From a virus (taxonomy: Duplodnaviria > Heunggongvirae > Uroviricota > Caudoviricetes): DNA of 44,417 nt. Of the stretch, positions 1 through 4,600 are shown in pieces (position 1 is the stretch's first letter; every line of letters begins with the position of its first letter). The position numbers were made by a program, and so were the translations under genes. The notes below the pieces were generated by a model. That model did no database searches, was not told the DNA's origin, and saw only the letters and a list, made by a program, of their open reading frames with translations. Location: the IMG/VR virus record IMGVR_UViG_2606217118_000001, one strand, 5' to 3'.

Positions 1-276
1 TTACCGACTGCGGCCTGAGTTTTTTAAGTGACGTAAAATCGTGTTGAGGCCAACGCCCATAATGCGGGCAGTTGCCCGGCATCCAACGCCATTCATGGCC
101 ATATCAATGATTTTCTGGTGCGTACCGGGTTGAGAAGCGGTGTAAGTGAACTGCAGTTGCCATGTTTTACGGCAGTGAGAGCAGAGATAGCGCTGATGTC
201 CGGCGGTGCTTTTGCCGTTACGCACCACCCCGTCAGTAGCTGAACAGGAGGGACAGCTGATAGAAACAGAAGCCAC
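1..276 (-). CDS. insA: IS1 InsA transposition regulator
   Basis: 91 aa [40 protein letters not shown]... recognised as IS1 InsA. Confidence 0.9.
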
Positions 277-331
277 TGGAGCACCTCAAAAACACCATCA
301 TACACTAAATCAGTAAGTTGGCAGCATCACC
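1..331 (-). mobile_element. IS1 insertion sequence, partial (left terminal inverted repeat plus insA; element continues beyond window start)
   Basis: Reverse complement of 300-331 reads GGTGATGCTGCCAACTTACTGAT, the IS1 terminal inverted repeat; insA starts 55 nt inside the end as in IS1. Confidence 0.9.
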
Positions 332-965
332 AGCCTTCTTGAGGCTACCACCTGTTTTCAGGTGTCATTCAGACGTGATTTGCCCCAGATTGGGAAAGCA
401 CGCTTTTTTCTCAGCTATCGTCCTCTTATTTTGCCGTTACATTTCTTTTTGCACTCTAATGATTAATTTACAATAATAATATCGGTAATTATTGAGTAAT
501 AATAAATTGATTATTGCAAATGTAATTTAATTCCATCTTCGCGTTATATTCCAATCTTTAATCTCCGCATGGAACAAGTTGCATGCGTGACTATATTAAG
601 ACAACTTATAACCACCAAAACATTTGCTTTGCAAGCAAAAACAGTGACCATTGACTCTAAGAAAATTCCGATCTATTGTTAGGGTCATCAAAGTTACTTA
701 ACAGTATTCCGAAATGAAAATACAAAGCAAGCTAATTGTCTTATTAAACATTATTATTGCATTTATATTATTTGAGCTTTTAGCTCAAAAATTTGGTTTG
801 AGTACATTATTTTAAAGCAAGATAAACAATATCGGGCACTCTAGTTTTTATAATTAACAATTAAACGTCCATGAAATGTTATTTACTTTTCTTCGCTATT
901 GTCATATCTTAATATAGTGGCTTACGCCACTCTACTTTCATCACATTTTGTACGTTTATGTACTC

Positions 966-996
966 GCCATGAAGCTCTTTCATGGCGATTTTTTAT
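966..996 (+). terminator. Rho-independent terminator-like hairpin in AT-rich orphan region
   Basis: cgccatgaagctctttcatggcg stem-loop followed by TTTTTTATT. Confidence 0.4.
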
Positions 997-1080
997 TCTT
1001 AATCCAAGAACATACTCCCTACCTATAGCAAAATCACTTTTTTAACAAAAGAATAACGTATTTAGGTAATCATTACGAAT

Positions 1081-1662
1081 TTACCCTATAGGTGCTACTG
1101 GCCATTCAATATCCGGTGCAGTTGTTGTATTAACACGGTTCAGCAACACCCGATACTTCTTCCAGGCTTCCAGCAACGAGATTTCTTCCTCCGTTGCGAT
1201 TTCCAGATCTACAGCATCCTGAAGTGGCGCAATATGCTCACTGGCTACCTGCATCAGGCTGTTTTTTGTTTCTTCTGCCTCCCGGATCCGGAACAGTTTT
1301 TCTGCTTCCGTATCCTTCACCCAGGCTGTGCCGTTCCACTTCTGAAACTCCCCTTCCGGCGATAACCAGGTAACATTTTCCGCTAACGGACCGAGTTCAG
1401 AAATAAATAACGCGTCGCCGGAAGCCACGTCATAGACCGTTTTACCCCGATGGTCTTCAACGAGATGCCACGATGCCTCATCACTGTTGAAAACAGCCAC
1501 AAAGCCAGCCGGAATATCTGGCGGTGCAATATCGGTACTGTTTGCTGGCAGACCTGTATGAGGCGGAATATATGCGTCACCTTCACCAATAAATTCATTA
1601 GTTCCGGCCAGCAGATTATAAATTGTTATGGTCCGTGGTTGTTCACTCATTCTGAATGCCAT
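1081..1662 (-). CDS. tfa: Tail fiber assembly protein (lambda Tfa-like)
   Basis: 193 aa, [24 protein letters not shown]...; start overlaps stf stop. Confidence 0.9.
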
Positions 1663-4600
1663 TATGCAAGCCTCACAATATAGTTAAATGCGATGTTTTT
1701 GACGGTGTTTTCCGCGTTACCAGCAGCGTTAACGGTGATGGTGTGTCCATGTGAGCCAATCGCAACCGAGTGCGTATGAGCACCAATACCGACAGTATGT
1801 GCGTGTGCACCTGCGCTTGCAGCAGTGCCGGACAGTGAGTGGGTATGAGCACCATCTGATGATGTCTTCCCTGCATTACGAGTCTGGCCACTACCGCTTG
1901 TTGTGCTCATAATCCCCGCGCTTGGATTTGAAATCGCGGTATAACCATTAGGGAAAATGCTCGTGTTCGTGCCACCAAATGCACCGGAACTCTTGTGTTG
2001 GTGCGCACCGGCACTATTTGCGGTCCCGCTAATACTATGGGTATGCGCCCCGGTGTTATTCGTGGATTTGGTTCCGTAATCAAACGACGATGTGGTTTTC
2101 GTCCCCAAATCCGTACTGGATGCGCTGGCGCTGTGGGTATGCGATTTAATGCCGTCCTGTTCCTGAGACAATACGGCCCGACCACTGGCAGGTTTGCCCT
2201 TAATCGTCCAGCCACGCATATCAGGGATCACGCCTGACGGATAAGCCGCTGCAAGTTTCGGGTAGGCAGATTTGTCAAAAGCCTGCCCCTGCATCAGGGC
2301 ATAGCCAGACGGAACGGTATCTGATGGCCACGGGATTGGTGCGCCGACTGGGTAGCTTTCTGGTGGAAGATTTTTCGAGGTATAAACTTCTGCCCAGTCT
2401 TCCTCAAAACCATAGCCATCTCTTGAGGAACGGTAGAACAGACCTCCATTTCTGTAATGCGCCTTCATCTGCAGGGTCCGGCAACTTCCGACTCCGGTAT
2501 AGAAGTTAACCAGAATATAGCTGTCGCCAGAGCGGGTGACATTGTAAGCGCCTGATTCGGCATTCCAGGGAACGCCACCATCCGCATCGGCATATGTATC
2601 CGTTGCCCTTCTGGCAAAAGCAGCCACATGCGCGGCGGTTAAAGTAATATCTTTGGAACCATCAAACTCAACACCAGAAACCAGTCTTGGCGTTTGCAGC
2701 TTTGTTGCTGTTAATGCATTACCGTTCAGACTTGCGGACAGTTTGGTTCCAATAATCAGTTCGCCGGTTGCGTTATCAATAGCAAACGGTCTTAATGTAT
2801 TCCAGCCACCATAAACATCACCTTGATTGGTAAGCAGCAGGTAAGTTTTAGCGCCATCATTACGCCATAATGCACCATACTCCCCACCTATCATTCGAAT
2901 CTGATTACCACCACGCGCTACAATTTCGTCTGTGGCAAAAAGTTTTTTGCACGACAAGTTATCGTTAACGATTAACGAATGAGACTCATAAAAACCACGC
3001 CCACTCTTAAAATCAAGGATAACGTCCGCCGCGATACATTCAGTCGCCGGATTTGTTGCCCCAAACTTATAGGTCGTATCATTAACAACGAGATCAGCAC
3101 CAGGTGCGGATATTGACAGGCCATCTTCGATAAACGCAAAAACAGGGAAAGCAGCGCCATCAACATAGAACACAGAGCGCAAATCATCGCCCTTATTACT
3201 CATCATTATTGAGTGGATGGCTCGTTCATTGTTTTGATATTGCCAGAACATTCCATAAGCATAACGCCCCCTGTCAGTCCAGCCACCAGGCATAACAAAT
3301 CCGTTAAACTCGCAGTTATTCATCGGATCGCCTGCGGTTCGCGTTGCCGTGGTGATAATGACCCTTGATGCCAGTTCGCTTACTGAGCCAGCAGAACGCA
3401 TAACAACAACAGGGTAATATTTTCCAGATGTTGCACCTGCAGGAGCGTTAACCCGCACATAACGCATACCACGCTTATCAGCAAAGTCTGTTTTACTGAC
3501 CGCGTTAATGTTGTTCAGGAAGCGTCCCTTATCGGGTATATCAGCGCCGTTCTGGTCTTTCTGCAGACGTTTCTCTGCATTGTCATAGGCTGATTTTACT
3601 GCCTTTGGCGTTGCCGCCAGCGTTTCAGACGTACTGTTGGTCGCACTGCTGAGCTGTACTACCCCCTTTTTCGTCGTGCTCGCATCCTCAAGCGCCACGG
3701 CGGATGCAATATCCTCTGCCCGTTTTGCCGCTGTCTCGGCGCGCGTTGCCGCGGATTCCGCCGTACTTTTGCTCTGTGCTGCCGCTGCCGCACTGCCAGC
3801 TGCCTCTGTCGCCTTCGTGGATGCTGTCGTGGCGCTGCCCTTCGCTGCTGACGCCTGTCTGGTCGCCTCATCTTTTGAAGCAGACGCCGATGATGCCGAT
3901 GACGCCGCCGAACTGGCTGACGATGCGGCAGCCGTTTTTGAGGATTCTGCGCTGGTTTCCGACGCTTTCGCGTTCGTTTCGGATGTCTTCGCTGCGGAAG
4001 CAGACCTCGCTGCTGCGCTGGCCTGTTCAGTGGCTTCGCCAGCCTTCGTTGTGGCTGTTGAAGCAGACGATGCGGCACTTTCTGCCGACTTTCCGGCAGC
4101 GGTGGCACTGGCTGAGGCCTGCCCGGCACTGGCTGAGGCCTGCCCGGCACTTGTTGACGCGGCGCTGGCAGACGACGCAGCCGCTGTTTTTGAGCCTGCC
4201 GCAGCTGAGGCACTCTGTCCCGCTGCCGTTTCAGAAGACTTAGCGTTCGTCTCGGACGTTTTGGCCGCCTTCGCAGAATTTGCTGTCGCCGTTGCCGAGG
4301 AAGCTGCGCTGCTGGCGCTCGAGGCTGCGCTCGTTTCTGATGATTTTGCCGCCTCTTTTGAAGCTGACGCATCCCGGGCTGAGGTGGCAGCTTCTGACGC
4401 TTTCGTGGTCGCGGTGGATGCAGAAGTGGCTGCTGATTGTTGTGACGCTGCCGCATTCGTTTCTGACGTTTTCGCCGCAGCGGCACTGGTGGCCGCCGCG
4501 CTTTTTGAGGACTCTGCAGCGGCAGCACTTTTTTCCGCTTCAGTGGCCTTTGTTGATGCCGTTCCTGCGCTGGAAGACGCTGACTGAGCCGACGACGCGG

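Follow-up and report, generated by a model that had tools for sequence, protein, structure and literature searches.

The DNA analysed here (the window) is the IMG/VR virus record IMGVR_UViG_2606217118_000001, 44,417 nucleotides long, and the subject of this report is an AT-rich interval near its left end that probably holds an unannotated gene for a small membrane protein related to YncL of Escherichia coli. The interval (332-1080, 749 bp) is bounded on one side by the end of an IS1 element, whose terminal inverted repeat fills 309-331 and so makes base 332 the first non-IS1 base, and on the other by the stop codon of the tail fibre assembly gene tfa (1081), which is preceded in the window by an stf gene of 1140 aa. 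The G+C content is 31.8% at 333-1080, compared with 53% for tfa and stf together and 51% for the whole window. No open reading frame (ORF) of 60 aa or more is present; seven reach at least 30 aa, the largest being 52 aa (318-476, starting within IS1) and 48 aa (899-1045). A model that saw only the letters and a list of ORFs (the original prediction) had described an AT-rich gap of about 750 bp between IS1 and tfa without an ORF of 60 aa or more, holding a hydrophobic 33-codon ORF, a Rho-independent terminator and short inverted repeats. The gap was confirmed, the ORF was found exactly at 714-815, and the terminator stem with its TTTTTT tract lies within 1-2 bases of the place given for it. Inverted repeats are present too; only the terminator arms are perfect, and the others are short, imperfect (74-92% complementary) and unremarkable for AT-rich DNA. 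The features are collected in Table 1.

Table 1. Features in and beside the AT-rich interval; positions are those of the window.
Feature	Position	Strand	Description
IS1, partial	1-331	-	insA ORF at 1-276 (-); terminal inverted repeat ATCAGTAAGTTGGCAGCATCACC at 309-331
Phage-arm remnant	332-416	.	Left 85 bp; stub of a ~194-bp phage-side arm from a fossil serU (tRNA-Ser CGA) attachment junction
AT-rich spacer	417-502	.	Confined to full-length copies of the interval (280 genomes, 4 phage records); no feature was recognised
Post-tfa module	503-1080	+	Always directly after the tfa stop codon; at several prophage sites
Conserved island	555-614	.	90-93% identity to the TUM12355 lineage
Predicted sigma-70-type promoter	651-679	+	TTGACT, 17 nt, TATTGT (consensus scan); 35 nt upstream of the ORF start
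Putative yncL-like gene	714-815	+	33-aa single-pass hydrophobic peptide MKIQSKLIVLLNIIIAFILFELLAQKFGLSTLF
Conserved 3' block	915-1004	+	Hairpin 916-931, AU-rich stretch of ~30 nt, terminator; 3' untranslated region of the predicted small mRNA
Predicted Rho-independent terminator	964-996	+	11-pair stem (10 perfect pairs) at 964-988, then TTTTTT; 150 nt downstream of the stop codon
tfa	1081-1662	-	193-aa ORF for the tail fibre assembly protein; runs convergently to the small gene

With seven ORFs of at least 30 aa in the interval, the presence of a 33-codon ORF is by itself at chance level. The evidence for coding comes from comparison of three lineages with DNA identities of 77-95%: a main clade; SCU-111 with its relatives, at ~91%; and TUM12355 together with a single IMG/VR contig, at 77%. 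The frame, start and stop of the 33-codon ORF were kept in all three, despite a 5-nt deletion at the stop codon and 18% nucleotide divergence. Between the window and TUM12355 there were 11 synonymous and 7 non-synonymous changes, giving proportions of 0.56 per synonymous site (pS) and 0.088 per non-synonymous site (pN), or pN/pS ~0.16, which ranked in the lowest 0.24% among all 99-nt windows in six frames. The comparison with SCU-111 gave 5 synonymous changes and 1 non-synonymous change (pS 0.254, pN 0.013, pN/pS ~0.05), in the lowest 1.1% of the same ranking. When the TUM12355 lineage was set aside, 5/7 of the variable sites in the ORF were synonymous (binomial p = 0.005 at 20% synonymous sites, and 0.03 at 30%). 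The ORF was also intact in 47/47 IMG/VR contigs that reach it, a sample picked by a pattern in the 3' untranslated region (UTR) and not by the ORF. From these comparisons, the ORF looks to be under purifying selection at the protein level and to behave as a gene. The 52-, 48- and 37-aa ORFs of the interval were rejected as genes, none having a family match; the 37-codon ORF (569-682), although annotated in phage PhiR70_1, has lost its ATG in other lineages.

A search of the peptide among small-protein families, which the original prediction had proposed, returned YncL as the sole match. In NCBIfam, residues 1-28 of the window peptide aligned with positions 1-28 of model NF000537 ("stress response membrane protein YncL") with E=1.3e-5, and two variant peptides matched the same model with E=3.7e-5 and 7.5e-5 (25.0, 23.5 and 22.5 bits for the three variants). 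BLASTP against K-12 YncL (MNVSSRTVVLINFFAAVGLFTLISMRFGWFI) gave an ungapped alignment from Met1 with 11/28 identities (39%) and 18/28 positives (E=2e-7). The Smith-Waterman score with YncL was 60, compared with 20 +/- 4 for shuffled peptides; 0/20000 composition-preserving shuffles reached 60, and ten other small hydrophobic E. coli peptides scored at most 31. When 3053 natural stop-to-stop segments, taken in six frames from the window and from seven loci, were ranked against YncL, the copies of the ORF came directly after YncL itself, and the next unrelated segment scored 40. The positions common to the two peptides are M1, S5, K/R6, V9, L10, N12, A16, L19, F20, L22 and K/R-F-G 26-28. Among precomputed assignments, PF28073, the Pfam family of YncL proteins, was present on protein P0022, a copy with a frameshift that has the same residues 1-28 as the window peptide, and absent from P0018 and P0023. 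PHROGs held no family for the peptide, and a concatenated query of the peptide and YncL returned only 7 long mis-predicted variants.

The window gene does not occupy the locus of yncL, which in K-12 lies at 1517099-1517194 between patD and ortT; it lies downstream of tfa in prophages. We regard the peptide as a divergent paralogue and not an orthologue, because it scores below the equivalog cut-off, sits at another locus and shares no DNA similarity with yncL outside the ORF.

Several observations weigh against a gene of this kind. No Shine-Dalgarno motif precedes the ATG (TTACTTAACAGTATTCCGAA-ATG), whereas K-12 yncL has AAGGTGG. Few independent substitutions underlie the selection test, because diversity is low and there are only three lineages. 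All three variants fall under the curated NF000537 cut-off of 35 bits, while K-12 YncL scores 68.6. A few frameshifted copies (P0018, P0022) occur in the protein collection, and the exact 33-aa peptide was found there, among 15 billion proteins, in one contig only, without a name. The Prokaryotic Genome Annotation Pipeline (PGAP) annotated the small gene in none of the genomes listed. When the first 14 residues were searched as a degenerate DNA pattern, the GTDB species-representative genomes gave 0 matches, and the gene therefore appears confined to some E. coli prophages; GTDB candidates from a peptide-alignment search were dropped when tblastn failed to confirm them. A phmmer search of 1.84 billion representative proteins returned the peptide itself and one frameshifted copy, at a length where YncL cannot reach library-wide significance. 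The near-absence of the peptide from annotation and from the protein collection may reflect its size, and genome annotation systematically misses small membrane proteins.

The ORF is flanked by sites that could make it a transcription unit of its own. The promoter-like and terminator-like sites together predict an mRNA of ~310 nt, monocistronic and convergent with tfa. The predicted -35 element is retained by the TUM12355, L041 and L042 lineages; SCU-111 has TTAACT in its place. Further upstream, the conserved island may be a regulatory site for the small gene or an element of its upstream promoter region; a hairpin within it (CGCATG...CATGCG, 567-587) was rejected as a structural element, since it is not conserved in other lineages. 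The hairpin at 964-988 was also considered as a terminator for tfa on the minus strand and rejected, because there is no U-run on the minus-strand side.

No part of the module is better conserved than the predicted 3' UTR. Identity to the TUM12355 lineage was 90-97% across 915-1004, compared with 80-87% in the ORF, ~60% at 615-660, 50-70% at 795-870 and 57-70% at 1005-1080. The segment 905-998 has a folding energy of -27.1 kcal/mol (z = -6.5 relative to shuffles). In one O169:H41 genome (L060 2400-2600), the module has recombined with a tfa remnant, losing the ORF and keeping the 3' hairpin and terminator (the equivalent of window 914-1010). By its architecture the block is possibly a 3'-UTR-derived, Hfq-type small RNA (sRNA). 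That the 3' UTR is better conserved than the ORF also counts against the protein, since the RNA may then be the main functional product.

On that account, which we think unlikely, a non-coding or dual-function Hfq-type sRNA from ~915-996 would either have a promoter of its own or be processed out of the mRNA, and would act in trans, with the ORF secondary. The conservation of the block between poorly conserved DNA on both sides, its folding energy and its persistence alone after loss of the ORF in the O169:H41 genome fit this account, as do a TAATAT hexamer resembling a -10 element at 910-915 and the fact that the Salmonella yncL transcript was once listed as an sRNA (PMC5437024). However, TAATAT has no convincing -35 element, no target was identified, and the block, nearly invariant across lineages, offers no covariation. 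Nor did Rfam 15, run at a permissive E value on 1-2000 and at gathering thresholds on the whole window and four related loci, yield any family at its gathering score in 332-1080; the best matches in the interval, MicC (E=1.8, 22.8 bits, gathering 90) and Esr41 (E=9.2, 15.6 bits, gathering 102), were far below. The excess of synonymous changes in the ORF is also left unexplained. What stands of the sRNA locus offered in the original prediction is therefore the conservation of the 3' block, with a coding or 3'-UTR-derived sRNA as the form it could take, and no known Rfam family.

The original prediction had also proposed a type I toxin-like membrane peptide. The peptide part of this holds, on purifying selection and YncL homology; the type I part is unsupported, since simple scans revealed no terminator-bearing sRNA gene in antisense or divergent orientation. 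We consider it quite improbable that the hydrophobic peptide is a type I toxin repressed by an antisense or divergent sRNA, or by an antisense late transcript. Such a toxin would be small, hydrophobic and basic at its N terminus, as the peptide is, and its homologue YncL lowers viability and depolarises the membrane (PMC12542507). The ORF start without a Shine-Dalgarno motif, the large surrounding intergenic region and a weak promoter-like site, the only one on the minus strand (905 to 876), aimed back into the ORF, point the same way. But a simple scan of 280-1200, which might miss a non-canonical sRNA, found no terminator-like site on the minus strand, there is no extended complementarity between the ORF region and the upstream DNA, Rfam gave no antitoxin match, and TisB, ShoB, IbsC, LdrD, ZorO and DinQ score 18-29 compared with 60 for YncL. 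To our knowledge YncL has no antitoxin and is not a recognised type I toxin.

A further reading, which we think quite improbable, is a dual-function RNA switch. An sRNA-sized mRNA would encode a depolarising peptide, its 3' end (915-996) would act in trans, and Q-antiterminated read-through from tfa would serve as antisense repressor. If this were true, output of the peptide would depend on whether the phage is in lysogeny or in lytic growth, the device might for example serve dormancy, superinfection exclusion or abortive infection, and the locus would be a type I-like toxin system with the phage late operon as the 'antitoxin'. Least probable of all is that the ORF is a chance frame in an AT-rich recombination scar, conserved through recent descent and hitch-hiking with tfa: the chance-level number of ORFs, the 95-100% identity of most copies, the patchwork of recombination junctions with an IS1 deletion, the frameshifted copies and the lack of a Shine-Dalgarno motif would suit such junk DNA, but it does not account for a synonymous excess in two independent lineages, a frame, start and stop held at 18% nucleotide divergence, a specific colinear similarity to YncL that neither shuffles nor 3053 natural segments match, or conservation that falls in islands and is not uniform.

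The module that carries the putative yncL-like gene is widespread in E. coli. Its core (690-1010) was found in 827/5426 complete genomes (~15%), at 940 places and up to four per genome, so that the label 'orphan segment' in the original prediction does not apply. Most copies are 95-100% identical, and no annotated feature lies under the core among the matches listed. The sites include the lambda attB, the Qin/ydfJ site, where a second tfa remnant precedes the module, and a position beside the sit operon. In a prophage remnant at the Qin/ydfJ site, two remnants of tfa flank a gene (L005 4563-4760, +) for a hypothetical protein of 65 aa (WP_000348576.1); this gene, a short way upstream of the yncL-like module, may be another small moron.

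The interval as a whole, judged by its matches elsewhere, is a mosaic of phage accessory DNA, in which 332-416 and 417-502 are recombination scar and spacer. A 748-bp query was 100% identical in many E. coli chromosomes and 98.8-99.5% identical in four phage records, which represent three lambda-like phages (mEp332, PhiR70_1 and ev099); a distant blastn search of 50,697 phage records returned the same four only, and no hidden gene remnant. The 1343 matching genomes fell into three classes, with the full-length interval (280 genomes), with 503-1080 only (~95.5% identical) or with 333-416 only, and ~516 genomes (1343 minus 827) have the left piece without the module. The gene order in the three phages is stf, tfa, the interval, ~750 bp more AT-rich DNA, a gene for a 247-aa AraC-family regulator, transposase remnants and int/xis. 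Since the interval lies inside their packaged genomes, it is internal DNA of the b-region type and not a prophage end.

The suggestion of a degraded b-region or attR flank in the original prediction was therefore right for the b region, 332-416 deriving from an old serU junction, and wrong for the attR of this prophage. The comparison downstream of tfa in related prophages, proposed with it, decided the latter point. Strain 104 (L004) has a 100% identical interval, with IS1 at the same position and in the same orientation, in a prophage that occupies the lambda site, beside bioA/ybhB. There the bacterial chromosome begins ~2.5 kb further left, at ybhB/bioA, and the interval does not abut it.

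The source of the left piece could be traced in ev099 and in a prophage integrated at serU (L007). In both, the piece extends 110 bp leftwards and then meets the 3' 62 nt of serU (- strand); the next 278 bp match K-12 intergenic DNA between yodB and serU at 97% identity, and in ev099 (L003) these 278 bp and the serU fragment together occupy 3550-3889. The phages therefore hold the fossil of a serU attachment junction, a short piece of bacterial chromosome included, and in ev099, mEp332 and PhiR70_1 it lies in the b region of phages that integrate at the lambda site. Positions 332-416 are the distal part of the phage-side arm of this junction; the same arm occurs at other prophage ends, next to uspF in an O26 strain (L006) and next to zinT/serU (L007). 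A tRNA scan of the related loci found no intact tRNA, the serU piece being a 62-nt fragment. In the lineage of the window, IS1 (whole in strain 104, L004 5232-5999) replaces the ~550 bp found in ev099 at 3450-3999, including the serU fossil, which is missing from the window at the junction 331/332, and the lack of a target-site duplication at its flanks points to an IS1-associated adjacent deletion.

Several features outside the interval were noted. The 247-aa AraC-family regulator (L003 2500-3243, -; L004 4282-5025), which is outside the window, best matches YdeO (NF007407, 148 bits, cut-off 348) and then GadX, and IS1 cuts its gene off from most of its ~1.5-kb upstream region. It presumably resembles the prophage-encoded acid-resistance and type III secretion regulators of enterohaemorrhagic E. 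coli (EHEC), of the PatE/Psr type. A repeat of ~80 nt was seen near prophage ends (L005 4040-4110; L006 3790-3870 and 4140-4215; L007 4130-4215), with a hairpin CCGCAGCACGT...ACGTGCTGCGG at its end that is followed by a T-run in the L007 copy; it has no Rfam match at gathering score and may be a terminator or an sRNA. This repeat is absent from the window, and the 'capsid protein' of 55 aa that PGAP has on its opposite strand is apparently mis-annotated.

Within the window, the 3' end of tfa (1121-1319, -) gave a full-length match to Rfam RF02111 'IS009' at 229 bits (gathering 117), and this candidate sRNA family may model conserved 3' coding DNA of tfa or its remnants. Two further elements were the lambda cIII thermoregulator (RF01804, 38903-38961, +, 88.5 bits) and the Hfq-binding RNA STnc490 (RF01405, 43787-43910, +, 146 bits), which together with the gene order J, lom, stf, tfa identify the window as a nearly complete lambda-like prophage.

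Taking these results together, we consider that the interval is probably accessory DNA of the moron type, placed where the tail-fibre genes of a lambda-like prophage end, with the unannotated gene at 714-815 (+), for a single-pass inner-membrane paralogue of YncL, as its core. Some features would fit a moron: a deviant G+C content (32% versus 51%), the position after the tail-fibre genes, a cassette-like distribution, and sites that match promoter and terminator consensus. The O26 prophage has NleG-type DUF1076 effector genes at the same position.

The small gene would be transcribed alone from the sigma-70-type promoter near 651-679, and its transcript would end at the 964-996 terminator, giving an mRNA of about the size of an sRNA, convergent on the late gene tfa. 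The peptide, by analogy with YncL, would insert in the inner membrane and could lower the membrane potential or proton-motive force, taking the lysogen towards a low-metabolism, stress-tolerant state. During lytic growth, Q-modified late transcription running out of tfa would be antisense across the small gene.

The analogy draws on what is reported of YncL itself. It is induced by heat shock and in minimal medium, and its production reduces viability, depolarises the membrane to a sublethal degree, condenses the nucleoid and makes cells hypersensitive to magainin-2; like YohP, it dissipates the membrane potential when produced (PMC12542507). YncL is cleaved in vivo by RseP (PMC10470546). The Salmonella transcript, first catalogued as the sRNA STnc1110, is sigma-S-dependent (PMC5437024), and yncL mRNA is a partner of KilS, an sRNA of the Rac prophage, in RNA interaction by ligation and sequencing (RIL-seq) (PMC8175672).

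The literature searched made no mention of the peptide or of a prophage YncL paralogue, and this is the first indication we found of a YncL-type peptide carried and spread by lambdoid phages. An unannotated 33-codon gene in ~1/7 of complete E. coli genomes would be a useful annotation correction. If expressed in lysogens, the peptide would give a prophage a simple means to tune host membrane energetics, dormancy or sensitivity to antimicrobial peptides. YncL research would gain a natural, divergent second allele, which marks S5, N12, A16, LF19-20 and K/R-F-G26-28 as constrained residues. The finding is incremental and not surprising, because prophage morons and small hydrophobic peptides are both familiar.

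Of known systems, the closest is YncL of E. coli K-12 (b4598). At 31 aa it is nearly equal in length to the 33-aa prophage peptide and aligns with it colinearly without gaps. Each has one hydrophobic span (mean Kyte-Doolittle value over 18 residues 2.9 (2.87) for the prophage peptide and 2.3 for YncL), with N12 within the hydrophobic core. Each gene forms a short, sRNA-sized monocistronic unit with an intrinsic terminator at its end, convergent on a neighbouring gene, although for the prophage gene this is predicted. They differ in that the prophage gene has a highly conserved 3' UTR of 180 nt, whereas the yncL terminator follows almost directly on the stop codon, and in that one is prophage-borne next to tfa and the other chromosomal between patD and ortT. 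With TisB, HokB, ShoB, ZorO and YohP the peptide shares size, hydrophobicity and N-terminal positive charges, but its sequence similarity to them is at background and no antitoxin sRNA was detected here.

In its setting, the gene is most like the morons at the tail-fibre end of lambdoid prophages, such as lom and bor of lambda and the exchangeable effector loci of EHEC. Like them, it is a separate AT-rich unit with its own predicted promoter and terminator, sited between the late operon and the b/att region; it is a cassette swapped between prophages and is dispensable for the phage, being missing in many relatives. Those morons specify an outer-membrane protein or a secreted effector, in contrast to the 33-aa peptide here, for which expression in the lysogen is predicted.

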